Assembly: GCA_046761065.1 (NCBI GenBank)
Contig: JBHIFL010000020.1
Span: forward strand, 1 to 52,853
Length of the DNA: 52,853 bases
Origin: Candidatus Heimdallarchaeota archaeon
GTDB lineage: Archaea > Asgardarchaeota > Wukongarchaeia > Wukongarchaeales > JBHIFL01
Direction: 5' to 3'
The position numbers were made by a program, and so were the translations under genes. Under the pieces are notes generated by a model. It was given only the letters and a program-made list of their open reading frames with translations. It was not told the DNA's origin and made no database searches. Below are positions 12,531-46,411 of the stretch, one piece after another; position 1 is the stretch's first letter; every line of letters starts with the position of its first letter.

Positions 12531-13727
12531 TTGGAGTACCCTATTTCCATTATTAGAGAGGGAAGAGCAACAATTATGATCCCTGATCTAGCAAAACATC
12601 TTGGCCAGAAGGTACACCAAGTCAGTTCAAAAAAGTTGCCTGTGTTTTATAATCCACGTATGGAGTTTAACCGCGACCTTTCAGTTGTTGTGTTAAATAC
12701 CTATACACAAAATAGGAAAGAGGGAATTAGAATCAGCGAACCCCTTACAGGAACCGGGATTAGAGGGATTCGGTATGCATTAGAGGTCTCCAAGGTTAAA
12801 CAGGTCATAATCGGGGATCAAGATCGTACTTCAGTCGAGCTGGCAAAAAAGAATATAACCATGAACAATGTAGACGATAAAGTGAGCATCAAACACATCG
12901 ACGCGAATTTACACCTCAGTTCGATCGCAATCGGAAAAAACCAAGTTGATGTAGTGGATTTAGATCCTTACGGGTCACCTGCACCGTTCTTGGATTCTGC
13001 AGCCCGTGCTGTTAACAAAAAAAACGGACTTCTGTGCATTACTGCGACAGATATGCCAGCTCTGGTAGGGATTAAAAAGAGAATCTGTATTCGGAAATAC
13101 GGAGCGGTTCCACTAAAAACAATGTATGCCCATGAGACCGCTTTACGGATTTTGATTGCCGCGTCAGTTCTGGCTATAACGCGACATGGCCATGGGACAC
13201 AGCCAATTCTTACCCATAGTACGGATCATTATGTAAGAATTTACTTGAAGATCCACCGAGGAAAAGAAAAGGCCAAACAGACGGTTTCTCGACTTGGATA
13301 TATATGCCATTGTGAGAGATGTTTTACAAGAAACATGATTACCTTGTCAGAACCAATGGGGAAAATGTGTCCAGAATGTGGAGGCCCACTCATGATCGGA
13401 GGCCCACTTTGGATAGATGAACTAGCTAATAAAAACTTTGTCAGAAAATGCATCAAAGAAGCAAAAAAACTTCCACTCGGAAAGATAAAGGATGTTCTCA
13501 AACTGCTCCACCGAATAGTTGGCGAACTTGAGATATCTCCAACATTTTTTGACATCCATATTCTGGCAAAAAGATTGAAGATAAGCTCTCCTCCATTGAG
13601 TGTTATTATATCTAATTTAAGAAGGCGGGGTTACCTTGCTGCACGAACCCATTTCAATAATACTGGAATCCGCACAAATGCGGCTGCAAGTGAAGTGATG
13701 GATATCCTCAAATCAGCCGTAGTATGA
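12531..13727 (+). CDS. trm1: tRNA (guanine26-N2,N2)-dimethyltransferase Trm1
   Basis: VFYNPRMEFNRDLSV, TGIRGIRY, DLDPYGSP, CITATD, zinc knuckle. Confidence 0.96.
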   Translation: MEYPISIIREGRATIMIPDLAKHLGQKVHQVSSKKLPVFYNPRMEFNRDLSVVVLNTYTQNRKEGIRISEPLTGTGIRGIRYALEVSKVKQVIIGDQDRTSVELAKKNITMNNVDDKVSIKHIDANLHLSSIAIGKNQVDVVDLDPYGSPAPFLDSAARAVNKKNGLLCITATDMPALVGIKKRICIRKYGAVPLKTMYAHETALRILIAASVLAITRHGHGTQPILTHSTDHYVRIYLKIHRGKEKAKQTVSRLGYICHCERCFTRNMITLSEPMGKMCPECGGPLMIGGPLWIDELANKNFVRKCIKEAKKLPLGKIKDVLKLLHRIVGELEISPTFFDIHILAKRLKISSPPLSVIISNLRRRGYLAARTHFNNTGIRTNAAASEVMDILKSAVV

Positions 13728-13729
13728 TG

Positions 13730-14302
13730 CTAGGGAGCCAATAAACTCAAAATTTTATTTTCTAAAATAGTACGTTCTTGTTCCCTGTTTTCTCGGGTGA
13801 TTTCGATGATAGTTGTGTCTCTCCGCTCTCGTACTTCAAGAAGGAATTTATGTTTTGATCGATAGTGAATAGAACCTAAAACGACTTTTTGAGTAGTAAG
13901 AAGATGCCGTACAATGTTTTGAAAGTTGAATGAAAACAGTTCCATTGGTCCAAGTTCATCAATAACCACGAAATCAACTTTCAAAGCTAAGGACTTTTTT
14001 AAAGATCCGACACCTATTGCTTCGAGATTCGCTAAACTGACACCATACTTACCAATTCGCGTCTTACTAGGTAACTCAATATGAGCGAGAACTCTTACAT
14101 CTCCGGATATCAAATCTTGAATAAAGAACCCTGTCCGGCTTCGTTTAGGTCGTATCTCAGTTGTTACGAACCCTCCGGCTTTGAATCCTTGAGATTCAAG
14201 TTCATTTTTAATATCAAGTAGAATAGTGGTCTTCCCACATCCAGGTGAGCCCGTGACGAGAAAGTTCTTGATTTTGGGATTCAATTTTCCCACATTACAC
14301 AC
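13730..14302 (-). CDS. Nucleoside triphosphatase, THEP1 family
   Basis: TGSPGCGKTT, GGFVTTEIR, RIGKYGV, VIDELGPMEL. Confidence 0.92.
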   Translation of the reverse strand: MCNVGKLNPKIKNFLVTGSPGCGKTTILLDIKNELESQGFKAGGFVTTEIRPKRSRTGFFIQDLISGDVRVLAHIELPSKTRIGKYGVSLANLEAIGVGSLKKSLALKVDFVVIDELGPMELFSFNFQNIVRHLLTTQKVVLGSIHYRSKHKFLLEVRERRDTTIIEITRENREQERTILENKILSLLAP

Positions 14303-14402
14303 ATTTTAGAGGATTATATGATTCCAATTGGAGTGGATTAAATATTTCTAGTCGTGAAGAAAAGAACTAAGTAAGAAGAGAATATTGATATAAGAAAAAG
14401 GG

Positions 14403-15404
14403 TCAGAAATTTCGGATAACCTTTGATTTCTTACGGATCTCTCTCAGGAGCGTTTTTCCTTCCTTTATCTTTTCAAGTTCTTGTATACTTAAAGTGGCAA
14501 CTCCTGGGAAGGGTTGTTCGATGGAATGATCTTCTGTGACATACAGGGGTTCAGAATGAGTAACAGCTGCTACACTTTTTACAGATTGAAGTCTTTTCCC
14601 ACTTTGTGTCTCATCACCTTTGTCGATCGCGGTCATTATATTTACAAATATCATTTCGGGAGGAGGTGATATCGAATCAAGGGCAAAAATGTCAAAAGGT
14701 GTAGTTTTGAGAAGGATAGGATCTAATCCTATTTCTTCGAATCGTTCATATACTTCTTTTTCGAGAGATTCAGGAAGATGCTCTTTTTCTAGCTTTTCGA
14801 CCTCTATATCCCACTTGAGAAAGTCAATTGCGGGAAATATAGGGATTTCTAAGACTTTTTCTAAGCGGATCGCCGTTTCAAGACTGGCATCCATTTCACC
14901 ACGCTCATAATCATAGATCGTTCGTCTACTAACACCAATCTCACGCGCTAATTCAGCCAACGAGAGATTACTTGCTTCTCTTACTGTACGAAGCAGCTCA
15001 CTATTCAACTTGACATAAAGACCTCCACGTGATGCGTAAATTAACGGAAATAATCCTTTAACAAGCAAGTCCCTTGCTGTTTGCAGGCTAACGGCAGGAA
15101 TCCCATGTCGTTTGTACACAACACCATCTTGGATTGCTTCATGGCGTCGACATCGTTGTCCCACAAGAAGTGGAGAAGCAGCAAGAAGTTTTGCAAGTAA
15201 TTTTAACTCGATTGCATGAAGTTTTTGTAAACTATCGATATTTACTAATATCTTAAGGAGAAAGAGTAGTTTTTGACGCCTAGCAGCTAGATCAAAGCAC
15301 GTAGATTTAATAGTACACCTAGATGAGACATTAAAATCTGTTTTTTGGAGAAGATCAATAATTTCTGCGACCAAGCGTGATCGCTCCGTTGAGCTTTCCT
15401 TCAT
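14403..15404 (-). CDS. Archaeal Cro/C1-type HTH regulator (COG1395-like)
   Basis: CFDLAARR...LKILVNID, RGGLYV, central HTH SLAELAREIGVSRRTIYDYE. Confidence 0.85.
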   Translation of the reverse strand: MKESSTERSRLVAEIIDLLQKTDFNVSSRCTIKSTCFDLAARRQKLLFLLKILVNIDSLQKLHAIELKLLAKLLAASPLLVGQRCRRHEAIQDGVVYKRHGIPAVSLQTARDLLVKGLFPLIYASRGGLYVKLNSELLRTVREASNLSLAELAREIGVSRRTIYDYERGEMDASLETAIRLEKVLEIPIFPAIDFLKWDIEVEKLEKEHLPESLEKEVYERFEEIGLDPILLKTTPFDIFALDSISPPPEMIFVNIMTAIDKGDETQSGKRLQSVKSVAAVTHSEPLYVTEDHSIEQPFPGVATLSIQELEKIKEGKTLLREIRKKSKVIRNF

Positions 15405-15617
15405 ATCTCATCACGTGCTGTTGATTACTTTGATGGACTAATATAAATGCATTATTGTAGTCATGTTAACTCACTCTCCTTATACGCATATGTAGTGGAA
15501 TCTCAGGCTAATATAGGTAAATAGGATAGAAGAGCCCTGTAGATGATGTTATCGGAAGATTTGATTGTGAATGAATAAAATAAGCTTGGATATTTCTATT
15601 ACCTAAGAAATACCTAT

Positions 15618-16190
15618 ATGGAACGCGATCTCTGCATGGAAGGTCTACATTACTTGAGAATGGTGTTAACTTTGCCAAAAAATGCCTTAGAAAATGATAA
15701 AGAGGAAAAAAATCAGTTTCTAGAAAGAATAGCTTATGAGTTGGCTAAAATGAGGAAAAATCATCTGGAAACTGACTTCAATCCTACAGAAGCCATCAAT
15801 AAGATCATAATGATTAATGGTACTCAAATCTATAAGAAGCATGCGAATGAGTATTTGACCCAAGCAAAGAAATGGCTCAAATCTGAATTGTACAATAATG
15901 CTGCCGTAGCGATAGCATGTGCAGCTTTTTGCAAGCTCGTTGTTGAGGGAATCCTAGAAGCTGTAAAGACTCTCACAAAGTTTTTAGAAGAAGTTAAACA
16001 GGGGAAAGATGAGATTCGGAGAAATTCTGTCTTGTTATCTGCAAAAGAGGCGTTAAAAGCGCTTATCACTCGAGATGAAGATCTTCTTCTTCAAGCGGAA
16101 TTAAGGGTTTTAGAGGCCCCGATCGCGGCAGAAGAAGATCGACTACTATTGTTGAGACTTATTGATCACATAAAAGCAAGATTTCTATGA
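15618..16190 (+). CDS. Hypothetical all-helical protein (TPR/SNAP-like repeats possible)
   Basis: 190-aa ORF of amphipathic helices; no recognised catalytic motif. Confidence 0.6.
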   Translation: MERDLCMEGLHYLRMVLTLPKNALENDKEEKNQFLERIAYELAKMRKNHLETDFNPTEAINKIIMINGTQIYKKHANEYLTQAKKWLKSELYNNAAVAIACAAFCKLVVEGILEAVKTLTKFLEEVKQGKDEIRRNSVLLSAKEALKALITRDEDLLLQAELRVLEAPIAAEEDRLLLLRLIDHIKARFL

Positions 16191-16268
16191 AATTCATATA
16201 AAAATTAAAGCTCTGGAAATATAATATTATACATAATTTTTTATTGCTGTTAAAAAAAGAGAGATCAG

Positions 16269-16658
16269 AGAAGTGATGAGTGGAAGGACGACTGCCGGGA
16301 GCCATGGTTCAGCTGTGGTGCCTGAGGAAACTCCGCCCACTATGAGAAACCCGGATACCGAAAGGTGTAAACCGAGAGGTTTGGCAACGGAATAGAAACG
16401 AAACGCCCGCCAGCAGATGGCGAGGATACGGCTGAGAGGCATTTTAATGCCTCAAGAAGACATGAACAATGTGTCGAGCAAACCCGTTGAGGACGCTGGT
16501 GGAAACGTTGAAACGACCGTCCCCGGGAGTGCAAGCTCAAATTGGTCTCTGGTGATTGCTCTTGAAGAGACGGGTAGAGCGCTTAGATTGATGTCGTCAG
16601 GGTCGAATGAATTGTTTGACCGAAACAAAAGGCGGGTTACTCCCCACACCTCACTTCT
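16269..16658 (+). ncRNA. rnpB: RNase P RNA (archaeal)
   Basis: GAGGAAACTCCGCCC (16324-16338) and AACAAAAGGCGGGTTA (16624-16639) form P4; terminal helix AGAAGTGA/TCACTTCT; AGAAAC, TGAAAC and GTGCAAG conserved regions. Confidence 0.96.
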
Positions 16659-16663
16659 TATTA

Positions 16664-17194
16664 TTATTTTCCCCGTAATCGCAAGAGGAACCTTTGTTGG
16701 ACCCTGATTAGCTGTTCACTTGTTTCTTGCGCAGAATAAGCTTCTAAAAGCTCTTTATTCAATGTTAAGAAATTTAAACCCCAATTAAAAAGTGCCATGA
16801 TTTGTTCAGCTTGAGTTTTTCTATTTAAAATATAAAGAGCTCCAGCAATCGCCTCAGCTGTACTCAGTTTTGTGGGTTTCCCATAATTCACAGGATTCGC
16901 TGCAATTAGATAAGGTAACGCCCTAGAAGTATCCCTATTATAGCTTAGAATCTTCTCAGCTTTGCTCCAAGAGCAGTCAAGGGCTACAATTCCACGCTTT
17001 TTAGCAAGGAGTTGATCCTCTCTACTCAAAGCTTTGGGGGTCTTTGGATTCAAGATGATCGCTCGACGAGGGATCCGCCTCAAATAATGGATTGGTTTTG
17101 CGAAACCTCTTCGAATAACTCTAAGCCCAGTACATTTTTTAGGATCACACTGCTGTGCATTGAAAATAAACACGGGATATGTGATGTTTGCCAT
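16664..17194 (-). CDS. tsr3: SSU rRNA aminocarboxypropyltransferase Tsr3
   Basis: QCDPKKCTG, LDCSW, RALPYLIAANPVNYGKPTKLSTAEA. Confidence 0.96.
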   Translation of the reverse strand: MANITYPVFIFNAQQCDPKKCTGLRVIRRGFAKPIHYLRRIPRRAIILNPKTPKALSREDQLLAKKRGIVALDCSWSKAEKILSYNRDTSRALPYLIAANPVNYGKPTKLSTAEAIAGALYILNRKTQAEQIMALFNWGLNFLTLNKELLEAYSAQETSEQLIRVQQRFLLRLRGK

Positions 17195-17286
17195 TTCATG
17201 TCTTGCCTTTCTATAATTTATTCAAGAAGTCGAAACAAGATTTTTTTCGTCTCGAATTTTTTGGTTTAACAATGTTTATAGTGATT

Positions 17287-18231
17287 TCACCTTGGTTCTT
17301 GCAGTACTTTTACCTCATTTTTGATAATCGCCGCATTAGGATCAATTTGTTCAATTAAGGAAGCCAACAAAAGAACGTTAGTATGATGCTTTTTAAGTAA
17401 AGCCTTGATCGAATCGGGAGTCGGGATATTTGCACTAAAAGCAAGGTTTATTGCTTCCCGAGCAGCTCCGGTGAGGAGATATTTTATTGTCACAGATGTA
17501 GGGATATAAATGCTGAATGATAAGTTTAGAGCATGATTATAAGCTTTTTGAAGATCTTGTTCTGTTTTTGTAAAATCAATCTCGAGATCTTTCTCTGTAA
17601 GGATGATCCCGGCATCATAAGCTGCGTAAAGTGTTAGTCCTATTTTGAAGGGCTCCATTTTGAGACGAGAGAGAACCACTGCAAGGATTCTTGAAATTTT
17701 TTCTCCTTGTCGTACAACTGTTGTGTCTTTTGTGATTCGTATCTGTCCTGCATCGATCCTCGTTGGGAGACCTACCGCACCAAACTCGCTTATGATAGGT
17801 CCTGGTTGAATTCCCGTATTCCCAGCAGGAACAACTACGTCTTCAGGAGCAATCATTCCTGATTTCGCGGGAGTAGGCACCTTATTATCTCTAAGAAATG
17901 CAGCTAAGCGGAATGGGTTTATATCAGTTAAGATTAAAGCGTTTGAGCCTTTAATTTCATCTTTTAGTAAGAGTAACTTCTTCGCTTTGGCCTTCTTAGC
18001 AGTAGCATCAAGAGCAAGGAGCTTGAGGGTATTCTTTGTCACTTTTATTTTCACCTTGCCTCTCAATTGCTTTCTTACCTTCTGGAGAATCTTTGAACTG
18101 ATTTGTTCCAGACGAACTAGACCTATCACCTGATGGGAAGTCAGGTCCATTACAAGTTCATTAACGATTTGTTGTTTATCCTCTGGAATTTCTTTTCGTT
18201 TGTAGAGGACTTCTTCTTTGGCGATTGACAT
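17287..18231 (-). CDS. rpl10: Ribosomal protein uL10 (P0)
   Basis: KVTKNTL, PAKSGMIAPEDVVVPAGNTG insertion domain; follows uL1. Confidence 0.95.
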   Translation of the reverse strand: MSIAKEEVLYKRKEIPEDKQQIVNELVMDLTSHQVIGLVRLEQISSKILQKVRKQLRGKVKIKVTKNTLKLLALDATAKKAKAKKLLLLKDEIKGSNALILTDINPFRLAAFLRDNKVPTPAKSGMIAPEDVVVPAGNTGIQPGPIISEFGAVGLPTRIDAGQIRITKDTTVVRQGEKISRILAVVLSRLKMEPFKIGLTLYAAYDAGIILTEKDLEIDFTKTEQDLQKAYNHALNLSFSIYIPTSVTIKYLLTGAAREAINLAFSANIPTPDSIKALLKKHHTNVLLLASLIEQIDPNAAIIKNEVKVLQEPR

Positions 18232-18275
18232 TCGATTTGGCCCCTGCCATATATCATTTGTAAGTATTGTCTCTA

Positions 18276-18923
18276 TTACCTTATCTTTATCGGTTTTCCC
18301 ATTGTTGTTTTTATGTAAACCGACCTAATGTTTTGTTCCCCTCTTTCAAACCTTTCTACAAGATTTTTTAACACAACATCAATGTTTGCATTGAGTTCCT
18401 CATCTTTCATGTCCACAGTTCCAACTCGAGTATGAATGGTTGGAGTTTTTCGTAAACGCAATCGAGTAGACCGTCGTAAATGAGTGATAATAGGTTCTAT
18501 GTCGGCGTTGGGAGGAATTGGTTTCGGCATTTTTCCACGTGGGCCTAGCATACGCCCAAGGAACCTACCAACAAGTGGCATCAAGGGAGCTGCGGCTATA
18601 AAGAAGTCAACTGTTTCTGTAATGTTTTTCAGCTTTTTTGGGTTACTTGCTAGCTTTTCGAGATCCTCTCGCCCGAATAACAGATCTGCTCCCGCTCGTT
18701 GAGCTCTGACTGCCAGATCACCCTCCGCAATGACACAAATTGCCACTTGTTTGCTGGTTGGATGTGGTAGACGAACTTCTAGGTCAAATCGGTTTTTGGG
18801 ATTAGTTAAATCCAAATCTTGTACATTTATGATCATATCTATGGATTCCAAGAAGTTTCTCTTGTGAGTACTCTCTCGTGCTTTCTTTACTGCTTCATTT
18901 ATCGCTTCTTCAGAAATTGCCAT
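18276..18923 (-). CDS. rpl1: Ribosomal protein uL1
   Basis: RNFLESID, LGRMLGPRGKMP, YIKTTMGKP. Confidence 0.98.
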   Translation of the reverse strand: MAISEEAINEAVKKARESTHKRNFLESIDMIINVQDLDLTNPKNRFDLEVRLPHPTSKQVAICVIAEGDLAVRAQRAGADLLFGREDLEKLASNPKKLKNITETVDFFIAAAPLMPLVGRFLGRMLGPRGKMPKPIPPNADIEPIITHLRRSTRLRLRKTPTIHTRVGTVDMKDEELNANIDVVLKNLVERFERGEQNIRSVYIKTTMGKPIKIR

Positions 18924-19233
18924 TGTTACTTCTCTCTTTCTTTTAGTTATAAGTAGTTCGAGGTCATAATGAAATAGAATAAGTCTTTTGTTCGATCCAT
19001 TTTAAAAATCTTTTATAGAAAAAGATGTATCTATCCATTGAATTCTGAATAATGAGCTTCAAATGAATATTAATTAGAACATAATATTTCCATTTTCTTT
19101 ATAGAGTTATTATTAAGAATTGTCACGAGATTATCAAAATCAGAGTGTTAAGTCTATATCTTTAGAGAAAGGAAAATGATAATAGCTATATTATCGTTAA
19201 GATGCTCTAAAATTTTAAAAATTGGACTTCATT

Positions 19234-19713
19234 TCATGAAATGGCATCGTCAAATTGACCTGTTTTGATCTGTGTTTGGATCTCTCGTGGATCAACTTCT
19301 TCAACTGTTACTCCTAAACTCACACAACTCCCAAGGATCTCTAGGCAGACGGCTTTCAGATCTTTGGCTAATGAACCCGAGAGTTTTGTTTTAGCAATGT
19401 TTAGTACTTGTTCAAAACTTATATTACCTATAATGGTCTTAGGAGTTTCTCCACTTCCTTTTTCGGCACCTAGCTCCTTTAGAATCAAAGAGGCAGTCGG
19501 TGGGATTCCTACTTCAATCTCAAAGGTTTTATCATCAGTATTCACTGTAACCTTGACGGGCACTCGCATGCCGCGAAACTCGTTTGTTTGTTCATTGATT
19601 GCTTCTACAATAGCCACAACATTGACTCCAAGAGGTCCTAGTTGTGGGCCCAATGGCGGCCCGGCTGTGGCTTTTCCTCCCTCTACCAATGCTTCAACAA
19701 CTTCATAACTCAC
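19234..19713 (-). CDS. rpl11: Ribosomal protein uL11
   Basis: GGKATAGPPLGPQLGPLG, GMRVPVKV, ILGSCVSLGV. Confidence 0.98.
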   Translation of the reverse strand: MSYEVVEALVEGGKATAGPPLGPQLGPLGVNVVAIVEAINEQTNEFRGMRVPVKVTVNTDDKTFEIEVGIPPTASLILKELGAEKGSGETPKTIIGNISFEQVLNIAKTKLSGSLAKDLKAVCLEILGSCVSLGVTVEEVDPREIQTQIKTGQFDDAIS

Positions 19714-35947: not shown

Positions 35948-37729
35948 CTATACATTTACTTCATATTCAGGTTCATACTCTTCAATAATTCCTTCCCCCT
36001 TTGCTATATAGGTAATTGTTATTGTATCATCAGGTCGTATTTTGTCTATGAGCCAAGAGATTTTAGATCCATCCTCATCTTCACTTTTTATAGGCCTAAG
36101 AAAAGTTGGCTCAAATTGTATAATTTGAAAGCCGATAGGAAGCTTATCATGAATTGTAATGCCTTTGATTTCAATTTCTCCTTCGTTTCTTATTTCAAGA
36201 TCAATCTGATATTCATCAACTTCTATAGGGATCACTGATTTGGTACAAATTAATTTTCGACGGACATGTCTTACATGAATGATACTTAATCCAGTATAAT
36301 GAGCTTCAAGGCCAAGAGGATATCCATTCAAGAATATTTCATATCCTGCTTCATATTCCCCAGGGCGGGGAGCTAATGCAATCAATGGATACCTTAAGAG
36401 TACTTCCCCCCCAGACTCTATTTTCCCAGTGATTTTTTGTAAATCATTAATCTCTAAAACCAGTCGATGGACTTTTGAGGGATCTCTGTCTTCCGGAATT
36501 AAACTTGACTTATCAGGGCTTATTTCGATATCTTTGGCAATGAATTTGGCTTCAAAGAGAGGAGGAGGTCTGAATCGCTTAGGGATAGTATCTTTGATTT
36601 TTATTTGATTAAGATGTGATGAACCTATATTTCGAAGTAATATGGAGACCTCCAAAGGCGTTTCCACAAGACCAAAAACATCTCGAGGACTATATGATTT
36701 GAAGATTTCAGCAGCAATTACTGGCAGAAGTGTCCCTTTCTTTGTTATAGTACCTCGAAATGATTTTTTCAGTTCAAAAACAACTCTTGAGGTTATTGTG
36801 CTTTTAAGAACCGGAACATCCATACTATGAATTTCAAAATTATAAGACCAATCACTTAATGGATCTACCATCACTTTAGGCTGCTTTACAATGTGAAATT
36901 CTCCCACATTATCAGTTATTTTCAGATTTTCAATATACATTGTGAGATTGCTTTTATTATGAAATTCAAGTGAACAATTCCATAATCCATGTTTTTGCTC
37001 TGATTCGTCCTTACGAATCTCAATTATTTTCTTTGATGTGCTTGTTAAGTCTATAATAAGATTAGTCTTCGCATAATTCTTAATTTCATATTGAATTTCG
37101 ATCTCTCCTGCATCATAGGGAGTTTTTTGGCTTGCTTCGATCTCCGAATATAAATGCAATTCAGCTGTCGAGTTAGGAGCCAGGGTTTGTAATGTCCAAG
37201 ACATCAGTGATTGCTTTCGATCAAATTTAGCCAATCCCATAGAGATTTTCTTTTGAATAGGTTCTGAAAAGTCCTCAGGGATTCTCTTATGCAGTGAAAT
37301 GTTTGAAATATCCATTTCTGATGTATTATTAAGAAGGATCCTGAACATTACTCCTGTTTTTCTCTGAATTGGAAGAGATAAATTTAGCTCCTTGGGGATT
37401 TTATCATCCTGATAATTTGTGTCGATCTCTTCCCTTATTTCGAGTATAGAAGGAGGTGAAATCCTCTCGAAATTATGACACCAAACCCTTTTATCTGGAA
37501 TAAGACCTACCAAGAATTTTTCACAGAGATCGCCATCTAATGAGAGTTCTGTATTCCAAATTGGTGATTTGGAGGGATTTACAATCTTCACCATACCCTT
37601 TAATGCTGTTGACAAGAGTGAGTTATCTCCATCTAATGTGCAAGTCTCATTTTCCAATACTTCAATGATTAATTTGTCGTATTGAGGAACTTCAACTACT
37701 TCTAGTTCTTTTTTTGCCATGATAAGCAC
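35948..37729 (-). CDS. Cytoplasmic multi-beta-sandwich protein: mu-homology-domain-like N-terminus plus Ig/DUF11-like domains
   Basis: No signal peptide or TM. IIEVLENETCTLDGDNSLL...KGMVKI and G.AKFD....MSWTL...EIQYEI resemble the adaptin-mu C-terminal domain; later DTIP/DKLP...ISWLI..IRP..ITY segments are DUF11-like. Confidence 0.55.
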   Translation of the reverse strand: MLIMAKKELEVVEVPQYDKLIIEVLENETCTLDGDNSLLSTALKGMVKIVNPSKSPIWNTELSLDGDLCEKFLVGLIPDKRVWCHNFERISPPSILEIREEIDTNYQDDKIPKELNLSLPIQRKTGVMFRILLNNTSEMDISNISLHKRIPEDFSEPIQKKISMGLAKFDRKQSLMSWTLQTLAPNSTAELHLYSEIEASQKTPYDAGEIEIQYEIKNYAKTNLIIDLTSTSKKIIEIRKDESEQKHGLWNCSLEFHNKSNLTMYIENLKITDNVGEFHIVKQPKVMVDPLSDWSYNFEIHSMDVPVLKSTITSRVVFELKKSFRGTITKKGTLLPVIAAEIFKSYSPRDVFGLVETPLEVSILLRNIGSSHLNQIKIKDTIPKRFRPPPLFEAKFIAKDIEISPDKSSLIPEDRDPSKVHRLVLEINDLQKITGKIESGGEVLLRYPLIALAPRPGEYEAGYEIFLNGYPLGLEAHYTGLSIIHVRHVRRKLICTKSVIPIEVDEYQIDLEIRNEGEIEIKGITIHDKLPIGFQIIQFEPTFLRPIKSEDEDGSKISWLIDKIRPDDTITITYIAKGEGIIEEYEPEYEVNV

Positions 37730-38407: not shown

Positions 38408-38554
38408 GGGCCCGTAGCTCAGCTAGGTAGAGCGCCGGGCTTTTATATTCATGCTTTATATGGATATTGGCATGAATGGAGAAACCCGTTGGGCGCGGGT
38501 TCAAAAAATCTCAAAGAATATCCTTTGGTTTGGGAAATCCCGTCGGGCCCGCCA
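38408..38554 (+). tRNA. tRNA-Lys(TTT) with two introns (37/38: 38446-38483; T-loop: ~38506-38537); CCA encoded
   Basis: GGGCCCG acceptor, CCGGG-CTTTTA|A-CCCGT anticodon arm, GCGGG-TTCAAA|T-CCCGT T arm; intron hairpin ATTCATGC/GCATGAAT. Confidence 0.92.
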
Positions 38555-38561
38555 TAAATGT

Positions 38562-38696
38562 GCCGTGGTGGTGTAGCACGGTCTAGCATCTGCGGCTGTC
38601 ACCCGCTGGACTTCATCTGAAAAGATAAAGGGCGAGACCCGGGTTCAAAAGGGTGTGAAAAAAATTCATACATTGGAATTCCCGGCCACGGCGCCA
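38562..38696 (+). tRNA. tRNA-Asp(GTC) with two non-canonical introns (45/46: 38610-38636; 59/60: 38650-38679); CCA encoded
   Basis: GCCGTGG/CCACGGC acceptor, CTGTCAC anticodon loop, BHB helices CGCT/GGCG and TTCA/TGGA. Confidence 0.92.
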
Positions 38697-39109
38697 TATC
38701 TTTCTTCCGAGGAATTGTATAAATAGAAAGGTTAAGAAAACAATTCTTTATAGCATAGAATTAAAGATAAAGATAACCTCTCATTTTAATACAGTGATTA
38801 TGTTCTTATATATTCATTATCTTTTTTTAGTTATTAAGGCGTTTCAACTAATGCAAACAAGAAGTTTGATTTTTATTAGAATTTAAGTTGATTTTTAAGT
38901 TCTTCTAAGGCTTAATTATAGACCTACGCCTTTGGAAATTTATCTAGGGATTTTTTCATTTAAAAATGCACCAGTAATTATAATGAAAAATGATACCATC
39001 ATAAATGAAAGGATTAGGGTGATAATATAAAGGTATTTCATTAAGAGATATTTACATTTTTCAATACTGTAAGTACCTATTATACCACAGAACTTGAGGA
39101 GGATTTTAT

Positions 39110-40819
39110 GTGGTCTTAGAATTCTTGCGACCAGTAAATTTGGAAATGTTTGTGGGTCGAGACGAAATAATAAACACTTTCAGAGAAACCATGCGAAATT
39201 ATAAGAAGAACTCCGTAGAGAAGAAGGGATGGGTTATTGTTGGCGACCCTGGGAGTGGAAGAACTTCAATGATAAATATCCTGGAACGAATCGTAAGAAC
39301 AGAAGGGTTAACTCCCATAAAATGGTCTGTCCCACTGGATTATGAGATGTGGGAGATCCCCAAATGGATTCTTGAAAGTCTAAAAGACCGTTTACCAATA
39401 AAAAAGAAAAAGATTTTTGAAAAGATCCCTTTCGACTATTTGACAAACCTAACTCCCGAAGATTCGTCATACCCAACAAAAATAAACACCATATGTGAGA
39501 AATTTGCCCTAATCAATGAAGAACTGGAAACGAAGCGAGAATACATCGTATTCCTGTTTGATGATGTTGAGCGCTTTTTCCTATTGGGTCAAGATAATCT
39601 ATTCTTCTTTATTCTAGATATTCTGACCAATTTTTCTGAAAGGGACTTTAAAACCTTCTTTGTTTTTTCCCTCACCACAGAATTTTGGCAGCAAATCCAA
39701 AATGATCTTAAAGATATTTCCATTATCATAGAACTTGACCGTCTAGATCTTAAGGAAGCAGAAATCCTTGTACAAAGGCGCGAGGACCCAACCTATCGTA
39801 TAGACCCTCAAGTGGTAAGGGAAATAACAAAACAGACAGATAGATCACCATTCTCCTTGGTTTATGCATTGACACTGCTTAAAGCAATGAAAGGAGAAGA
39901 TGAAGGTGAAATTAGTATTAAAATATGGGATCGAATTAGACCTCAATTGAGAGAAATCAATCTTAATGTATTAGGGATCAATGAAAGCGAATCCAATATA
40001 TTATCCTTATTTGAAGGGAGAACAGAGAATATTCTAAGAAAAAAAGAAATTGAAAGATTAATAGGCATTGAACGTCCCAAATTGAATTCCCTTTTGCGAG
40101 AAATGGAGGAGAAAGGGCTAATAGTCCAAGGGAAAAATTTTATCCAAATAGCCTCCAATGCTTTACATCAACTATTAAGGCAAAAACTGTTAACAAGAAA
40201 TATTTTAGCTATAATACATGCTTTATTCGATCAAGTGGAATTTGAACTAAATAACGAACTGAAACCGTCAATTCAGCTTATAGAACGAATTGAAATCCTC
40301 TCAAAATCCTTGGAAGAAGCAGAAACTTCGAGAAAATACTTATATGATCTCGGTTCACGAGCTGAACAACTTGCTAAACATGCGTTTTCTTTGGAATTCT
40401 GGTATGAAACTTATGCGATTGCTAGATTAGCTGTAAAATTCTTTTCAGATTTGGCTCATGATCCTGAACGAGCTGCAATTACAGCAGAAGATATGGGAAA
40501 AATCTTTTTTGATCAATCAAGAATGAAGAGTAGTCTATTACACTATGCTATCAAACTTTATACTTATGCCACTTATATGTATAAGAATGCGAAAATTGAC
40601 TGGAAAGTAAAAAGTAATGCCAGAGAAGCAGCTATTTTGCATGAACAACTTGGAGATTATTATAAAGAAAATAATATGTTTGGTATAGCTAGATCACAAT
40701 ATTATGAGGCAGCTCAACACTTTGAACTAGCTGAAGAGTCAAAAAAGCGAGAATCTGTTATCCAAAAGGGAAAAAATGTCTCAATGTCTCCTGAGCTTTC
40801 CATGGTATTTGAAAAGTAA
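39110..40819 (+). CDS. Orc1/STAND-like AAA+ protein with winged helix and C-terminal TPR/SNAP-like solenoid
   Basis: FVGRDE, Walker A GDPGSGRT (K to R), Walker B FLFDDVE, wHTH LLREMEEKGLI, helical repeats AAILHEQLGDYY...YYEAAQHF. Confidence 0.75.
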   Translation: MVLEFLRPVNLEMFVGRDEIINTFRETMRNYKKNSVEKKGWVIVGDPGSGRTSMINILERIVRTEGLTPIKWSVPLDYEMWEIPKWILESLKDRLPIKKKKIFEKIPFDYLTNLTPEDSSYPTKINTICEKFALINEELETKREYIVFLFDDVERFFLLGQDNLFFFILDILTNFSERDFKTFFVFSLTTEFWQQIQNDLKDISIIIELDRLDLKEAEILVQRREDPTYRIDPQVVREITKQTDRSPFSLVYALTLLKAMKGEDEGEISIKIWDRIRPQLREINLNVLGINESESNILSLFEGRTENILRKKEIERLIGIERPKLNSLLREMEEKGLIVQGKNFIQIASNALHQLLRQKLLTRNILAIIHALFDQVEFELNNELKPSIQLIERIEILSKSLEEAETSRKYLYDLGSRAEQLAKHAFSLEFWYETYAIARLAVKFFSDLAHDPERAAITAEDMGKIFFDQSRMKSSLLHYAIKLYTYATYMYKNAKIDWKVKSNAREAAILHEQLGDYYKENNMFGIARSQYYEAAQHFELAEESKKRESVIQKGKNVSMSPELSMVFEK

Positions 40820-40841
40820 AAAACAATTGAAAGGGACCAAA

Positions 40842-42053
40842 ATGTCGTTAAACCACAAAAAAATTAGTGAAATCGCAAACAAACTCCAAACAGAAAAGGA
40901 ATTTCTTGAAAAAGAGAAAAATGAAATAAAAACTGAGCTTAAGAACCTTAAGGACATACAAAAGACTATTCAGAATTCTTTTTCTCAAGGAATAGAAACA
41001 ATAGAAGCAGATACCATCAATATTTTGGAAAACATGAAAACATCCTTAATTCAATTCTCAAATAAACTAGCAAACGATCAAATAACCTTTATTAAAGACT
41101 TTAATACCCGTACATTGGAACAATTCGGACAAAAAGCAGATCAGATGAAAGAAAAGAGTCGTAATCAGATATTTAATCTTTCTAAGACGCTTCTATCAAC
41201 TGGAAATCAAATTGAGAGAAAATTAGAAACAATAGTTAAAAACCAGTTAAAAACTGTGAAAGGAGAAGCTGATCTGTTTATTGACAAATTGGATGAACAA
41301 ACACAAATCCAGCAAGAGAATATCACTGAGTTTGCAGACCAACTTAAGGAGAAGTTTCAACAAGAATTGATAAACGGTATTAATAACTCAATTACAAGTT
41401 TTGTGGGATTTCAAGATCAGTTCTCCGTAATTATCATGGATGCGATATCTCGCTTGAAAGCTGCAATGGGAGAGTTGCAGAACCAACTTGATACTCTAAT
41501 TTTGTCCGAGCTGAAAAGGATCGAAACTCTGACAACAACCTATGAAGATCAATTTCTTCAAACTATAAAGAAGACGTTGGATCAGCATGAAAACGAGATG
41601 GCATCTTTAAAAGAAAGCTTCAGACATGCCATAGGCGAGCATCAACGAGCTCTGGAAAATAGACTGTCAGTGTTGACGAATGAAACAGTAGCTAATACTA
41701 AAGACACCATAGAAGCGGCGCAGAACAACCTTGTTCAAACAAATAACATGGAGATTGAAGCAATCGATCAAATGATAAAGGAAATTGAAGCTGTTATTTC
41801 TCAATATGTAGAAAAAGGCGTTGAAACGATTAATCAACAGATAAAAAATGATAAACCACTCCTAGAAACATTCACGGAAAATCGAGCTGTCTTTGCCAAC
41901 CAAGTTGAAGAAATAAAGAAAGGTATTGACATCAAAGAACTAACTACAGGAATAAGTGAAGGAATGCAAATGAGAGAACGCCGAATTAAGAATATGGAAA
42001 ATATCCTAAAAGATCTAGAGAAGATCCTAAAAGAATTGAAAAGGGGAGTTTGA
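40842..42053 (+). CDS. All-coiled-coil protein (~403 aa; probable start ATG 40842)
   Basis: Nearly proline-free amphipathic helix with apparent 11-residue periodicity; AAGGGA SD before 40842; stop overlaps the next start (TTGA). Confidence 0.75.
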   Translation: MSLNHKKISEIANKLQTEKEFLEKEKNEIKTELKNLKDIQKTIQNSFSQGIETIEADTINILENMKTSLIQFSNKLANDQITFIKDFNTRTLEQFGQKADQMKEKSRNQIFNLSKTLLSTGNQIERKLETIVKNQLKTVKGEADLFIDKLDEQTQIQQENITEFADQLKEKFQQELINGINNSITSFVGFQDQFSVIIMDAISRLKAAMGELQNQLDTLILSELKRIETLTTTYEDQFLQTIKKTLDQHENEMASLKESFRHAIGEHQRALENRLSVLTNETVANTKDTIEAAQNNLVQTNNMEIEAIDQMIKEIEAVISQYVEKGVETINQQIKNDKPLLETFTENRAVFANQVEEIKKGIDIKELTTGISEGMQMRERRIKNMENILKDLEKILKELKRGV

Positions 42054-45000
42054 ATACCATGCCTAAGAATAACTTGGATTTTAATGTGAAGGTTCTCTCT
42101 CAACTGGGATTGAGTGAAGAAGAGGCTGTTGCCTACTCAATCCTTGTAGGAACCGGATCACGGACAGCAGAAGAAGCTGCCCTATATTCTGGACGTCCAG
42201 CAAGAGAGATAAAAGAATCATTAGCAAAACTTGCGGAAAAGGGTTTTGCTAGACTGATTCCTGGTGTCCTCGATATTTATGTAGCATTGAACCCACAAAT
42301 TACTATTACAGCAAAAGCTGAAGATCAACTCCAAACTGAACTTAATAAAACAATCTCTGAAATAAATGATATATGGAAATACAGCGCAGATCAGCTCAGA
42401 GAAACAACAGCGAATTTTAAAACTGCTACTAAAGAACTTGCTGATAACAAAATTTCAGTAATGAAAGAAGCTTCTAAAAACTTTAGTAGTACAATAAAAC
42501 AAACAGTTCAAGAGCTAGAGGGAAACTTAAAGGAACTATCTGAAAAATATAGTGCAACTATATCAAAATTTACTACAGAAGACTATAATTCCCTGGAAAC
42601 TTCCCTTCAGACTTTGAAAACCACTTTATCTACTGAAATACAAAATCAGATTTCCGATTTAGAAGATTCTATAGCAGAACTAAACCAAAAAACTGCTGAA
42701 CTCATAGATAGTTCCTCGAAAATTCTCCGAGACCAGACAGATAATGTAATGGAAAGATTTGGTGCTATAATTACAGAAATCAAAGATAAAAATAGTAATT
42801 CAATCAAGGAATTCGAAGATAAGCTTATTACAACCACTGAAAACTTGGAAGCCCAAATCGAAGCACAACGAGAAAATTTATCCGAATCTGTGAAAAAAGT
42901 AGGGCATAATATAATTGACAACTTTAAAAAGAACCTTTCGACATTACATAGCACTTTCTCAAAGTCAATTACTGAGCTTATTACCCAAATCAACGCAAAT
43001 ATAGATTCTAGCCTGTCAAAAACCGCTGCAAGTCTTGATTTAAAAGTTGATCAACACGCAGAAAAAACTACAGAGAACAGGAACCTCCTAACAAATGCTC
43101 AGGATATCCTATCAACTGCTTTTCAAAACGTTATAGTTGAGATTGAAAAAAGTGTTCAATACAATGAATCCCTAGAAACAGCTCTTACCAAGTTTCAAGA
43201 AAAAACCCAATCTGTACTAAAGGATCTAACAAGCTTAGAGACTAACCTAACAAAGAAGACAAAAGCTCTTTCTGATAATACGATCTTAACGTTACGCGAA
43301 GGAATCAAAGAAGGAATTGATAGCATTCAAAAGGGCCTAAAAAGCATTCAGATGAATCTCACTCAATTTATAGAGAGTTCAGTAGCAGCATTAAAAGAAT
43401 CGAATAAGACATTCACAGATAAGACAACAACATTAATTGAATCAAAACAGGAGGACTTCCTATCAACACTTGATAATATCACAGAAGCTACAAAGAAACA
43501 ATTAAGTACCCAAACAAACGAAGCACAAAACAACATTTTAACAAAGAAAGAGATAGTTATCAACGAACTAACCAAACAAATTCAAGAAGCCAATGAAAAA
43601 TTTAACAAACAAATCAATAGAATGCGAAATGACACTGAAACCCTTCTTGAAAAATTTAACGAACAGGTTAAAACAAGAGTAAACACTACCAAGAGCAGTC
43701 TTCTGGATCAAGTCAAAGCAAATAATACACAGATAGAAGAAGAAATAGACGCCCAAATTGGCCAAATAAAATCCAATAAAACCGAGATAAATACTAAGTT
43801 AGATAATTTACTCAAGGAGATGACGGAGAAATTCACAAAACTTCGCACAAATACAATAGAAAAAACCAAAAACATTACCCAAGAAAGCATGAAACAGTTG
43901 AAGACGTATCTTTCAACCCTATCTGAAAGCTTTGATAAGACATTAAGTACCTTTTCTAAGAAAACTTCACAAGAATCGGAAGCAATACGAAAAGAGATCC
44001 CTCCAGCTCTTGATCGACTAGTGACAGATCATAAAAACAGAATCCAGACATTTGACCTCACCTTTTCAGAGACCCTTATGCAATTGATTGAGATTGTTAG
44101 TGAGATCTATGAGAAGCTTCAGGATAAAAAAACCCGGAAAAAGTTACATGAGGTATACCTGCCAAAACTAGAGGTAATGAAAACTAACTTAGCAGATATT
44201 CAAGAGAAACTTCGAACCCTCATGGAAACCCATATCACATCCTTTGAAACGGAGAGTTCGAAATTCATAGACCAAATTGAAAGATCCTTGACACTCCAGA
44301 TACGTAACATCCAAGATTTAGTAGAACAGAGTAAAGAAAAAATAGAAACATCTCGAAATGAAACCGGAACCATGGTGGAGGGTGGACTAACAGAAGCAAC
44401 GAACCTTCTTCTCAATAGTCTTCAGCAGACAACGGACCAAAATCTTCAAACTGGTGAGAGCAGCATAAAGCAAGTGAATAAAGCATTTCAAAATTGCATA
44501 AACACTCAAACTGCTCTACTGCAATCCTTCCGCGAAACTTTTACGTCCCTTGAGACTACCATCTCTACTGCTATTAAAGAAATAACAACTGAAACAAACA
44601 AGGATTTAGCCAATCTAAATAAGGAAATTCTAAAAAAGCAATCAAGACAACTTGATCAAACTTTAAAGGATACTGAAAAAGCAATAGAAGCAACACGAGA
44701 CCAAGTCCTAAACTCTACAGAAAATATCTCCCAGACTTCTATTGAAATAGATAAGAACTTACTAGCTCAGATGCTAGAACTTATAGATTCCCAGCGTGTA
44801 AGTGTTAGTGATGCATTCGAGGATCTACGTACAAACATTTCTGAAGGTCAAGAAAAGAGAAATACCGAATTAGAAACAAACCTTGAAAATATATCCATAA
44901 CTCAAAAAAAAGGCATAGAAGAGATTATTAAATCTGCTACAAATTCTATGAACAATATTATTGATGAAACAATAACCCAAATATCAGATTTAGGTAAAAA

Positions 45001-46411
45001 ACTCACTCGTACAAGCAATGATGAAATCGAACGAACTCTTCGAAATTCATCAAAACTCTATGGAGAGACGACTGATGCTATAACACAAGGACTTTCAAAA
45101 CAGATTAATTCCTTTAACCAAGAAATTATACCTTCTATTGAAAGCACGAAAGAAACCTTTACATCAGAACTTGTCTCCTCCCTCGAAAATGTAGAAAACA
45201 TACTGTTGAAATCTCAAAAAGAAATCAAAACGTCTGCTGACAATTTAAAAGAATTATTAAATGAACTTCCCGTAATAACCGAATCTATCAAGAAAGATCG
45301 AGAAAAAATGGATAACGAAGTCAAGTTCATCATCGAAAATACAGTTTCTGCGCTTCGAAACGAAGTAATTTCTAATGAAAATAAAACTCATGAGATTATC
45401 AGTAAAAGAACAGAAGAAGCTAAAGCAACTGTTATACAGCTGCAAAAAGAAGAACTTCCTCAAGTCTTGAGTACTACACTCCAAGAAAACCTTGATCAAG
45501 CAATAAAAACTATCAACAACGTAAAGGAAGAAGTTCACAAAAAGATTGAGAGTGAAACCAAGAATCTGAGAACTCAAAGTGAAAAAATAACTGCTATTCC
45601 AATTCGAAATATCCAAACAAAGGTAATGGATTTCCAAAAATCACTTGAAGACGAACTTGGTTCCCACTCTTTAACCATCAATAAACACTTTTTTAACCAT
45701 GCTGAGAAGTTAAGAGACTCTTTAAAAACACACCGTGCCCAAACAAAAGAAATGCTTGACTCTTCAGAGGCTATCATTAATCAAACAACCTTAAAATATG
45801 CTAAAGAGGTTGAAAAAAATCTTTTGGAGATTGCTACAGGAGTAACTAGCACAGTTGACAAAATCGAGAATGATGTGACCAAAAAATTATCAGGTCAACT
45901 ACAAGGAATCCCAGCACGAATACACACAGCCCTTAAGGATACAGGAGCCACGATGACTTTCTTAAAGCAGGTACATGACTTTGCCCTAAAAACAAAACCA
46001 CTTGCAATCGAACAAACATATCCTATATTTGGAAAAGAAGCTGTTCTCAATAGCATCCTCAGTTGTTTGAGCCGAGTCAAAAGTACGATCAACTTAGTTG
46101 TACCCAACCTTGAAGATATCCCACTTAATGTCCTAGAAACTGTTCCTAGTACTAGACGAATCGAATTGATCACTAGTGAATCTTCAATCACCCCAGAATA
46201 CATTTCTGAACTCACAAATAAGCTACCCAATGTTGTTGTACGAAAAACACCCGAAATAGATGCTTATATAGCCTTCAGAGACGCCGAAGAAGTTATTATT
46301 GGAACGGGAGAAGGAAACAGTCTTGCCTCAATTGCAACAACCCAAGAGGAATTTGTCCGCTTGTTGGGCGAATTACAATCCAGATTTAGATCTCAAAGCA
46401 GACCTGTTTAG
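42050..46411 (+). CDS. Giant TrmB-type wHTH, ~1230-aa coiled coil, TrmB effector/PLD-like domain protein
   Basis: N-terminus LSQLGLSEEEAVAYSIL...LAKLAEKGF...YVALNP; C-terminus IFGKEAV...RVKSTINLVVP...FRDAEEVIIG without HKD; helical middle. Confidence 0.8.
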   Translation: MNTMPKNNLDFNVKVLSQLGLSEEEAVAYSILVGTGSRTAEEAALYSGRPAREIKESLAKLAEKGFARLIPGVLDIYVALNPQITITAKAEDQLQTELNKTISEINDIWKYSADQLRETTANFKTATKELADNKISVMKEASKNFSSTIKQTVQELEGNLKELSEKYSATISKFTTEDYNSLETSLQTLKTTLSTEIQNQISDLEDSIAELNQKTAELIDSSSKILRDQTDNVMERFGAIITEIKDKNSNSIKEFEDKLITTTENLEAQIEAQRENLSESVKKVGHNIIDNFKKNLSTLHSTFSKSITELITQINANIDSSLSKTAASLDLKVDQHAEKTTENRNLLTNAQDILSTAFQNVIVEIEKSVQYNESLETALTKFQEKTQSVLKDLTSLETNLTKKTKALSDNTILTLREGIKEGIDSIQKGLKSIQMNLTQFIESSVAALKESNKTFTDKTTTLIESKQEDFLSTLDNITEATKKQLSTQTNEAQNNILTKKEIVINELTKQIQEANEKFNKQINRMRNDTETLLEKFNEQVKTRVNTTKSSLLDQVKANNTQIEEEIDAQIGQIKSNKTEINTKLDNLLKEMTEKFTKLRTNTIEKTKNITQESMKQLKTYLSTLSESFDKTLSTFSKKTSQESEAIRKEIPPALDRLVTDHKNRIQTFDLTFSETLMQLIEIVSEIYEKLQDKKTRKKLHEVYLPKLEVMKTNLADIQEKLRTLMETHITSFETESSKFIDQIERSLTLQIRNIQDLVEQSKEKIETSRNETGTMVEGGLTEATNLLLNSLQQTTDQNLQTGESSIKQVNKAFQNCINTQTALLQSFRETFTSLETTISTAIKEITTETNKDLANLNKEILKKQSRQLDQTLKDTEKAIEATRDQVLNSTENISQTSIEIDKNLLAQMLELIDSQRVSVSDAFEDLRTNISEGQEKRNTELETNLENISITQKKGIEEIIKSATNSMNNIIDETITQISDLGKKLTRTSNDEIERTLRNSSKLYGETTDAITQGLSKQINSFNQEIIPSIESTKETFTSELVSSLENVENILLKSQKEIKTSADNLKELLNELPVITESIKKDREKMDNEVKFIIENTVSALRNEVISNENKTHEIISKRTEEAKATVIQLQKEELPQVLSTTLQENLDQAIKTINNVKEEVHKKIESETKNLRTQSEKITAIPIRNIQTKVMDFQKSLEDELGSHSLTINKHFFNHAEKLRDSLKTHRAQTKEMLDSSEAIINQTTLKYAKEVEKNLLEIATGVTSTVDKIENDVTKKLSGQLQGIPARIHTALKDTGATMTFLKQVHDFALKTKPLAIEQTYPIFGKEAVLNSILSCLSRVKSTINLVVPNLEDIPLNVLETVPSTRRIELITSESSITPEYISELTNKLPNVVVRKTPEIDAYIAFRDAEEVIIGTGEGNSLASIATTQEEFVRLLGELQSRFRSQSRPV

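Follow-up and report, generated by a model that had tools for sequence, protein, structure and literature searches.

Among known prokaryotes, the Asgard archaea are most closely related to eukaryotes, and the organisation of their chromosomes and cell interior is largely unknown. This study concerns an operon of three genes, A, B and C, on the forward strand of contig JBHIFL010000020.1 from a Candidatus Heimdallarchaeota archaeon; the whole stretch analysed (52,853 nucleotides) is called the window. Several described systems come close to parts of this operon. The TrmB-family proteins TrmB (3qph, 2f5t) and TrmBL2 (5bpd/5bpi) carry an N-terminal winged helix, a pairing helix and a C-terminal PLD-like domain. 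TrmBL2 is a nucleoid protein that forms stiff DNA filaments and stalls SMC in Thermococcus (PMC11840125). In SMC, Rad50 and MukB, the two termini are joined by a long antiparallel rod with a special tip. KfrA-type plasmid proteins have a helix-turn-helix (HTH) DNA-binding head and a long alpha-helical tail, and the tail is thought to act as a scaffold (PMC7821693). STAND proteins with TPR sensors include PH0952 (6mfv), MalT and Avs.

Protein C shares all three TrmB-family elements, and like TrmBL2 it ends after a PLD-like domain without an HKD motif. However, the single short helix of TrmB and TrmBL2 corresponds in C to ~1,240 residues that form two predicted antiparallel arms and a conserved apex, and gene C, unlike theirs, lies in an operon with a STAND NTPase and a second rod protein. 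Judged from its sequence, C resembles SMC, Rad50 and MukB in the rod, the tip, the covarying arms and the mirrored insertions and deletions (indels). Unlike SMC and Rad50, C has no split ABC ATPase head (no SMC_N or ABC match), no hinge (no PF06470 match) and no zinc hook (the apex is without Cys). The repeat is a heptad in SMC and Rad50 but a hendecad in C, and the sole NTPase of the trio is the separate STAND protein. The KfrA proteins differ in being much shorter, in having no C-terminal domain that returns to the head and neither ATPase nor second rod, and in being encoded by bacterial plasmids. Protein A shares its domain order with the STAND proteins, 6mfv being its best structural match, but it has rod partners, no effector domain and a lineage-specific Arg in Walker A. 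The operon comprises:

39110-46411, +: three-gene operon A-B-C, open reading frames (ORFs) filling the span
39110..40819, +: gene A, 569 aa, GTG start, TAA stop, STAND-type NTPase
40842..42053, +: gene B, 403 aa, ATG start, TGA stop, all-helical hendecad rod
42050..46411, +: gene C, 1453 aa, TTG start, TrmBL2-type protein with a two-armed helical insertion

No described system has this layout, as an earlier reading made from the sequence only had already supposed. PADLOC models matched no system in the operon and hit only the coiled-coil parts of B and C with ZorA tail models. Zorya was rejected as a candidate: the PADLOC and NCBIfam matches to ZorA covered almost only its coiled-coil tail and never the MotA/ExbB-like domain, and no ZorB was present. 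None of the curated NCBIfam and Pfam families describes the combination, and a full-text literature search found no description of the operon. Term searches of a 2026 Asgard defensome survey and a 2026 Asgard chromatin preprint did not find it either. In this study, we propose that the trio forms a DNA-anchored architectural or tethering complex switched by an ATPase, and we give this reading a probability of roughly 45%.

One STAND NTPase and two helical rods

Five regions were delimited in protein C:

42095..42295, +: TrmB winged helix-turn-helix, residues 16-82 (Pfam PF01978, E 4.5e-11, 42.9 bits against a cut-off of 25.6)
42296..43984, +: arm 1, residues ~83-645, continuous hendecad helix, acidic and polar
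43985..44209, +: apex, residues ~646-720, conserved in the alignment, with an IRxE.P motif, helices and a Lys-rich loop
44210..46012, +: arm 2, residues ~721-1321, hendecad helix predicted to pair antiparallel with arm 1
46013..46408, +: C-terminal PLD-like domain, residues ~1322-1453, of TrmB/TrmBL2 type; predicted local distance difference test score (pLDDT) in the AlphaFold (AF2) model mostly >90

The assignment of C to the TrmB/TrmBL2 family, with the inter-domain helix expanded to ~1,240 residues, is strongly supported. The N-terminus matched residues 10-104 of Pyrococcus furiosus TrmB (3qph, E 2.9e-6 in phmmer), and the match extended into the TrmB pairing helix. In structure comparison, the PLD-like domain aligned with TrmB 2f5t (Z 17.6, root-mean-square deviation 1.9 Å, 126 residues) and with TrmBL2 5bpi (Z 15.0), and the top Foldseek match was TrmBL2 (E 2e-10). 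After TrmB and TrmBL2, the next structural matches were PLD-fold nucleases. Pfam Regulator_TrmB matched the C-terminal domain in 2 of 17 family members (E 6e-6). The HKD motif of PLD nucleases, HxK(x)4D, is absent from C, in keeping with the earlier statement that no nuclease motif is visible; the alignment has an invariant R-D-x-E-E instead. The sugar-binding beta-barrel of TrmB is also absent from C, which stops at the PLD-like subdomain, its alignment running to residue 241 of 2f5t. Both end domains of C are thus of TrmB type, and the single short linker helix is not found. By sequence profile, the C-terminal domain gave only coiled-coil noise and a weak FAM83B match (E 1.1) against PDB sequences, and a word-index homologue search with this domain returned only the gene itself and one 92% relative.

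The sequence-only reading had described C as a rod with DNA-binding-type ends. This holds for the N-terminal end, which is a TrmB winged helix; the C-terminal end is a PLD-like domain of the TrmB family. The rod is indeed long and helical, but it is better described as two antiparallel, length-matched hendecad arms with a conserved apex. Arm lengths were measured as the distance from head to apex and from apex to C-terminal domain. They co-varied (r = 0.987 for a set of 12 homologues and r = 0.993 for a further 22) at total lengths of 1176-1812 aa; the relatives are not independent, and the correlations for C and for B below each represent ~9 distinct length classes, not 28 or 34 independent points. 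In pairwise comparisons of close relatives, the indels of C came in size-matched pairs mirrored about the apex loop, as would be expected from pairing of residue i with residue 2x0-i. The comparisons were as follows (L denotes a locus, G a genome and f an Asgard family; the window's protein belongs to f2):

L038 and L020 (62% identity): 231 aa at 396-626 and 241 aa at 1078-1318; centre 852-857, loop 869
L050 and L049: 106 aa at 447-565 and 104 aa at 829-942; centre 696, loop 699
L036 and L037 (and L016 and L018): 33+40 aa and 33+33 aa; centres 732-741, loop 734
L020 and L019: 102 aa and net 60 aa; centres 644-663, loop 646

Arm-length covariation and mirrored indels together give strong support to the prediction that the two arms of C pair antiparallel around the conserved apex. 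The consensus of the apex loop is FG-KK; the window reads DKKT/RKK, and the FG is missing. The mirror symmetry of Gly/Pro helix breakers was also tried as a marker and set aside as noisy, with best centres 0-120 residues off the rod midpoint.

Most likely, C folds back as a hairpin, with the winged helix and the PLD-like domain forming a TrmBL2-like head at one end. We favour the hairpin because a conserved break in the helix marks the centre of the chain. Taking ~0.148 nm per residue and arms of ~560-600 residues, we estimate a rod length of ~85 nm. The alternative topology, in which C and B form antiparallel homodimers, is unlikely, though the most probable of the rivals. It would give a rod of ~170 nm that has composite heads at both ends, each made up of a winged helix from one chain and a PLD-like domain from its partner; such a rod could bridge two DNA segments. 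Such a dimer predicts the arm covariation and the mirrored indels equally well, and the alignment of C to 3qph runs into the pairing helix. TrmB-family proteins dimerise through the helix after the winged helix. On the other hand, the conserved break at the centre of C, with its IRxE.P motif and Gly/Lys-rich loop, suits a turn and not a continuous helix, and the well-studied proteins with a split head and mirrored arms known to us (SMC, Rad50 and MukB) are all hairpins.

The hydrophobic period of the rods was 3.65-3.68 residues in each 100-residue slice, except for three slices at 3.61, 3.62 and 3.74. Since the period is ~3.67 rather than 3.5, the rods are hendecad (11/3) and not heptad coils. 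Of every eleven positions, three contribute strongly and two weakly to the hydrophobic stripe, which is narrow; hydrophobic residues make up 27% of the arms and Ser/Thr/Asn/Gln 35%, and the isoelectric point (pI) is 5.1-5.3. Narrow stripe, period and acidic pI together indicate a non-supercoiled helix-helix core and no lipid- or DNA-binding surface. The Pfam Apolipoprotein family (PF01442) matched C at 104.5 bits (cut-off 90), although there is no Pro in residues 83-650 and the stripe is narrow; the arms of C contain no Pro-punctuated 22-mers. Because the rods are hendecads, we read the Apolipoprotein and ZorA-tail matches as a shared 11-residue periodicity. Self-similarity of the rods peaked at 33, 11 and 22 residues, and 33 residues is the indel quantum. 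The 33-residue peak suggests that the rods may grow by duplication of three-hendecad units. Length changes between L016 and L018, L036 and L037, and L038 and L020 were mostly multiples of 11, namely 33, 33, 33, 40 (33+7), 231 (21x11) and 241.

Protein B had been described as a coiled coil of ~400 aa. Its size (403 aa) and all-helical nature stand, and the description can be refined to a symmetric antiparallel hendecad rod with a hydrophobic period of 3.67. Exactly at its centre is the following block:

41355..41555, +: conserved 67-residue central block of B, gap-free in alignments, with an invariant Glu in YE..F

The consensus of the block is F..L...LE....S....QD.....I.DA...LN..ID..F..EL..IQ.....YE..F. 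The flanks on its N- and C-terminal sides measure 172 and 165 aa in the window and 221/215, 352/349 and 208/204 aa in homologues. The correlation of flank lengths was r = 0.999 for a set of 14 homologues and r = 0.998 for a further 28, and the flanks differed by a mean of 7.5 ± 4.7 aa over protein lengths of 427-773 aa. These data strongly support B as a headless rod whose design is symmetric and antiparallel like that of C. Homology between the block of B and the apex of C was considered and not accepted, the profile-profile probability being 67% at 8% identity. The length of B showed no relation to the arm length of C; in one genus, B is constant at ~770 aa while C ranges from 1176 to 1812 aa.

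The features of protein A are:

39242..39268, +: Walker A loop GDPGSGRTS, with Arg instead of the canonical Lys
39548..39571, +: Walker B strand VFLFDDVE, D151 invariant in the 14-member alignment
39962..40159, +: winged helix, residues ~285-350 (Pfam MarR_2 E 4e-5 and TrmB E 0.003 at 286-340; AF2 secondary structure)
40202..40816, +: TPR-like helical repeat sensor, residues ~365-569 (all-helical hairpins in AF2; aligns whole-chain to 6mfv)

There is strong support for A being a STAND-type NTPase that itself lacks an effector domain. Its AF2 model has a pLDDT of 85.5 and a predicted template modelling score of 0.79. The best PDB match in Foldseek was 6mfv, which is Pyrococcus horikoshii PH0952, a STAND protein with a TPR sensor; lower matches were Orc1/Cdc6, Apaf-1, SAMD9, Avs3 and RuvB. 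Pfam matches to AAA_16, MarR_2 and nSTAND3 were all weak and below the cut-offs, and relatives of A carry nSTAND1 and AAA_16. The order of domains is P-loop nucleotide-binding domain, helical lid, winged helix and TPR-like repeats, so that in the model the predicted STAND elements lie on one chain. This agrees with the earlier description of A as an AAA+, winged-helix and solenoid protein, now specified as an AAA_16 domain, a MarR/TrmB-type winged helix-turn-helix (wHTH) and a helical repeat tail in a STAND-like fold. The sensor hairpins have a pLDDT mostly of 86-97, with one ten-residue block at 68. In the 14-member alignment, D451, E453 and R454 of the sensor motif [GE]D-x-ERA[GA] are nearly invariant. 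Neither Pfam matches nor comparison of the AF2 fold revealed an effector domain in A. An assignment as Orc1/Cdc6 was discarded: TIGR02928 matched residues 12-62 only (E 0.0016, cut-off 181 bits), and the likeness is at the level of the fold.

The canonical Walker A Lys of STAND NTPases is replaced in the window, whereas the same alignment has GxGK[ST] in 13 of 13 homologues. The Arg (GSGRTS) is shared by the sister contig L076, which is 85% identical, and thus reflects a fixed change in this lineage rather than a sequencing error. In other P-loop proteins, a change from Lys to Arg usually keeps nucleotide binding and weakens hydrolysis. By analogy, the Arg suggests that A may bind nucleotide without efficient hydrolysis. 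Prediction of an A+B complex (full length, own alignments) scored 0.00 against a mark of 0.32, which is evidence neither way.

Conservation and inheritance of the operon

The sequence-only reading had asked whether the trio is conserved across Asgard genomes, and it is. In a search of 40 relatives, A, B and C were adjacent on one strand with gaps of 0-30 bp at 13 loci from 12 genomes. Gene A was present in 17 of the 41 genomes, in a single place per genome. C-like proteins occurred in 39 of 41 genomes; they are near-ubiquitous because many paralogues exist. The A-B-C set was found again in most of 40 further loci, where the canonical order also occurred in f16, f18, f4, f14, f20 and f19. This arrangement is far beyond chance. 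Variants were also seen. The order was C-A-B in G245 and one metagenome contig. B is missing in f24-26, where A is followed directly by a C-like protein of 1048-1123 aa. In f21, A and B are kept together, and the orthologue of C is 8-18 kb distant. The components thus stay linked through rearrangements. Comparison with L076 (~85% protein identity) gave ratios of nonsynonymous to synonymous substitution rates (dN/dS) of 0.18 for both A and B and 0.24 for C, which indicates that all three genes, repetitive rods included, are under purifying selection.

With a profile of gene A, 84 of 400 Asgard genomes were positive, mostly in one place, with two or three places in a few genomes (some of them split genes). 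Presence in this census was all-or-nothing by family. Gene A was found in f4 (31/31), f14 (11/12), f16 (5/5), f18 (6/6), f20 (3/3) and f24-26 (7/7), and was absent or nearly so from f9 (1/135), f12 (0/19), f23 (0/12), f28 (0/14) and two more families (0/87). In a tree of 54 A proteins, each taxonomic family formed one clade, and the 15 changes of family label are the minimum possible; the window's protein clustered with its own order (f2). Full-length A made up only ~30 clusters in a library of 1.8 billion cluster representatives, the next tier of relatives being proteins of ~380 aa with AAA_16/nSTAND1/ATPase_2 and a wHTH. All giant forms of C that were found came from Asgard archaea. The data strongly support an Asgard-specific, vertically inherited and near-single-copy module.

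The genes flanking the module are housekeeping genes and vary between lineages; examples are a small GTPase, DHDPS, M24 peptidase, AFOR, MFS transporter, ValRS, methyltransferase and NUDIX. Small Ras/Arf/Rag-type GTPase genes were seen beside the trio in f2 (L013:7041-7943), two genes downstream of an A-C pair (L033:16586-17077) and immediately upstream of a C paralogue in this genome (L032:4081-4647). In G099, the A-B pair lies between two giant ORFs (L066:3-6302 and 13622-19501) that are cut by the locus ends and reach at least 2100 aa and at least 1960 aa, respectively; the second carries repeated Laminin_G_3 and DUF2341 domains.

At least three further paralogues with a TrmB wHTH, a long helix and a PLD-like domain exist in this genome, with no A-type ATPase adjoining. 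They lie at C11:59379-62894, C36:25961-28222 and C68:16634-19096, with open frames of 1210, 769 and 846 aa (L028-L032). The nearest protein-atlas clusters to these rod-bearing paralogues are 'hypothetical' TrmB proteins of 650-870 aa from Promethearchaeota. Rod-bearing TrmB proteins thus seem to have expanded throughout the Asgard archaea.

Proposed function and alternative explanations

In the tethering complex that we propose, the TrmBL2-like head of C would anchor the rod on DNA, as its homology suggests, and the acidic rods would serve as long spacers or tethers. The conserved tips, that is the apex of C and the central block of B, may be the points of contact with each other or with A. 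Assembly or clustering of the rods would be switched by A in a nucleotide-dependent manner. Together, the three proteins would then form a chromosome-associated architectural or tethering complex and not a defence system. A more specific version is tentative, and we think it improbable in full: an Asgard-specific chromosome tether or organiser convergent with SMC/Rad50, with a fold-back rod of ~85 nm, a TrmBL2-type DNA clamp, a STAND switch and a second, headless hairpin rod.

If this were true, the prokaryotes most closely related to eukaryotes would possess a nucleoid-organising machine of a new class. Known parts, namely a STAND switch and a TrmBL2 head, are combined here in an architecture so far found only in SMC-type proteins, with a different repeat and no ATPase head. 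If the head binds DNA, the complex would tether or space chromosomal DNA over ~85-170 nm in a novel manner, and evolution would have arrived at the fold-back rod design by a separate route. Through its mirrored 33-residue indels, C offers a natural series of rod lengths (1176-1812 aa) for asking whether length matters.

Several points weigh against a tethering complex. DNA binding by the head of C is predicted from homology, and the head, at pI 6.2, is not basic. That A, B and C form a physical complex is deduced from their synteny and the coupling of the genes. Most Asgard families do without the module, so it is not universally required. The mirrored indels fit an intramolecular hairpin and an antiparallel homodimer alike. 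STAND NTPases with TPR sensors are common in conflict systems, and the fast shift of rod length within genera (1176-1812 aa in one genus) could fit an arms race.

The sequence-only reading had offered an SMC-like machine with its ATPase supplied in trans. The likeness is one of architecture only, and no sign of loop extrusion or segregation was seen. A canonical SMC coexists with the trio in this genome (a contig-end fragment) and in several families. General replacement of SMC by the trio was rejected, as G095 (f21) has an SMC matching the full-length model, this genome has the fragment, and f18 has an SMC too. The SMC hinge model was missing from f4, f14, f20 and f21, with no hinge in 28 of 31 f4 genomes and 12 of 12 f14 genomes. 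Among five genomes, full-length SMC (TIGR02169) was absent only from G025 (complete, f4) and G084 (f14), where the best match was partial (E 5e-10). Canonical SMC may be absent from f4 and f14, two families with a fixed trio.

A cytoskeletal or membrane-associated scaffold is an improbable explanation. Here, the hendecads would act as amphipathic helices of the apolipoprotein/perilipin kind or as intermediate-filament-type rods, and DNA binding would be secondary or absent. Hendecad periodicity throughout the rods, the Apolipoprotein score of C above the Pfam cut-off and the recurrence of small Ras/Arf/Rag-type GTPase genes nearby fit this explanation. Asgard genomes carry many small GTPases, however, and the adjacency may for this reason be chance. 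The stripe, with its few hydrophobic positions, is typical of a helix-helix core and not of a lipid face, the Pro-punctuated 22-mers are absent, and the conserved TrmB head speaks for DNA.

A STAND-based defence or conflict module, in which A senses an invader through its TPR repeats and B and C are effectors or decoys, is slightly less probable still. The sequence-only reading had listed a STAND-sensor signalling or defence module; the STAND-like nature of A stands, and the defence part is disfavoured by the family-fixed, near-single-copy and vertical pattern and the housekeeping neighbours. A STAND domain with TPR repeats does resemble Avs-type sensors, Avs3 is among the fold matches of A, and relatives of A carry nSTAND1. 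Rod length evolves fast, presence is patchy across the phylum, and the PADLOC ZorA-tail models match B and C. But those matches are confined to the coiled-coil tail and do not reach the MotA-like membrane domain. No nuclease, protease, TIR or pore domain was found, and the PLD-like domain is without HKD. The module is fixed in whole families at one or rarely two places per genome, its tree follows taxonomy, and its neighbours are housekeeping genes and not defence islands; the 2026 Asgard defensome survey does not name it. Vertical inheritance, housekeeping neighbours and lack of an effector thus disfavour defence.

An elaborate transcription regulator, with C as a sequence-specific TrmB-type repressor and A as a MalT-like co-regulator, is the least probable explanation. 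In its favour, regulation is the usual role of TrmB proteins, STAND NTPases such as MalT control transcription, and A has its own winged helix. But regulation needs neither a length-matched rod of ~1,240 residues nor a further rod protein, C ends after the PLD-like subdomain like the chromatin protein TrmBL2 and has no TrmB sugar-binding barrel, and no conserved target genes adjoin the module, since the flanks differ in every family.

Gene starts and surroundings of the operon

The tight coupling of the three genes noted earlier was borne out by the ORFs, including the coordinates and both junctions. The TAA of gene A is separated from the ATG of gene B by 22 bp, and the TTG of gene C overlaps the TGA of gene B as TTGA. 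Gene A is preceded by a predicted ribosome-binding motif:

39096..39102, +: GAGGAGG, ribosome-binding-like motif read from the sequence, 7 nt before the GTG of gene A

A second possible start of gene A is the ATG at 39146, whose equivalent is the annotated start on the sister contig. For gene C, the other start is the ATG at 42059, which corresponds to the 1450-aa database form and leaves a 5-bp gap after B. No transmembrane (TM) segments were apparent, as had been stated before, with C at 28.6% LIVMFYW and no TM predictor run.

The surroundings of the operon in the window are core chromosome, with FtsZ, unsplit RpoB, an adaptin-MHD-like protein, a pyridoxal phosphate (PLP) enzyme, MutL and MutS. 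The gene order of the sister contig L076 is FtsZ, RpoB, A-B-C, PLP enzyme, MutL and MutS. Relative to the window, L076 has an additional alpha/beta-hydrolase gene 3' of the PLP enzyme. Its 1.4-kb gap between RpoB and A is without a called gene, whereas the window has the MHD-like gene and a tRNA pair there. This pair, at 38408-38696 in the long gap before gene A, consists of two neighbouring tRNA-like genes split by several introns, with acceptor and T-arm sequences recognisable by eye; ARAGORN and Rfam scans of 38408-38696 reported no tRNA. The MHD-like gene at 35948-37729 on the reverse strand encodes a 593-aa protein with a weak match to the adaptor-complex medium subunit (mu-homology; E 2.8e-7, just below the cut-off). 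The same protein also matches DUF11 and is a eukaryote-like signature gene adjoining the operon.

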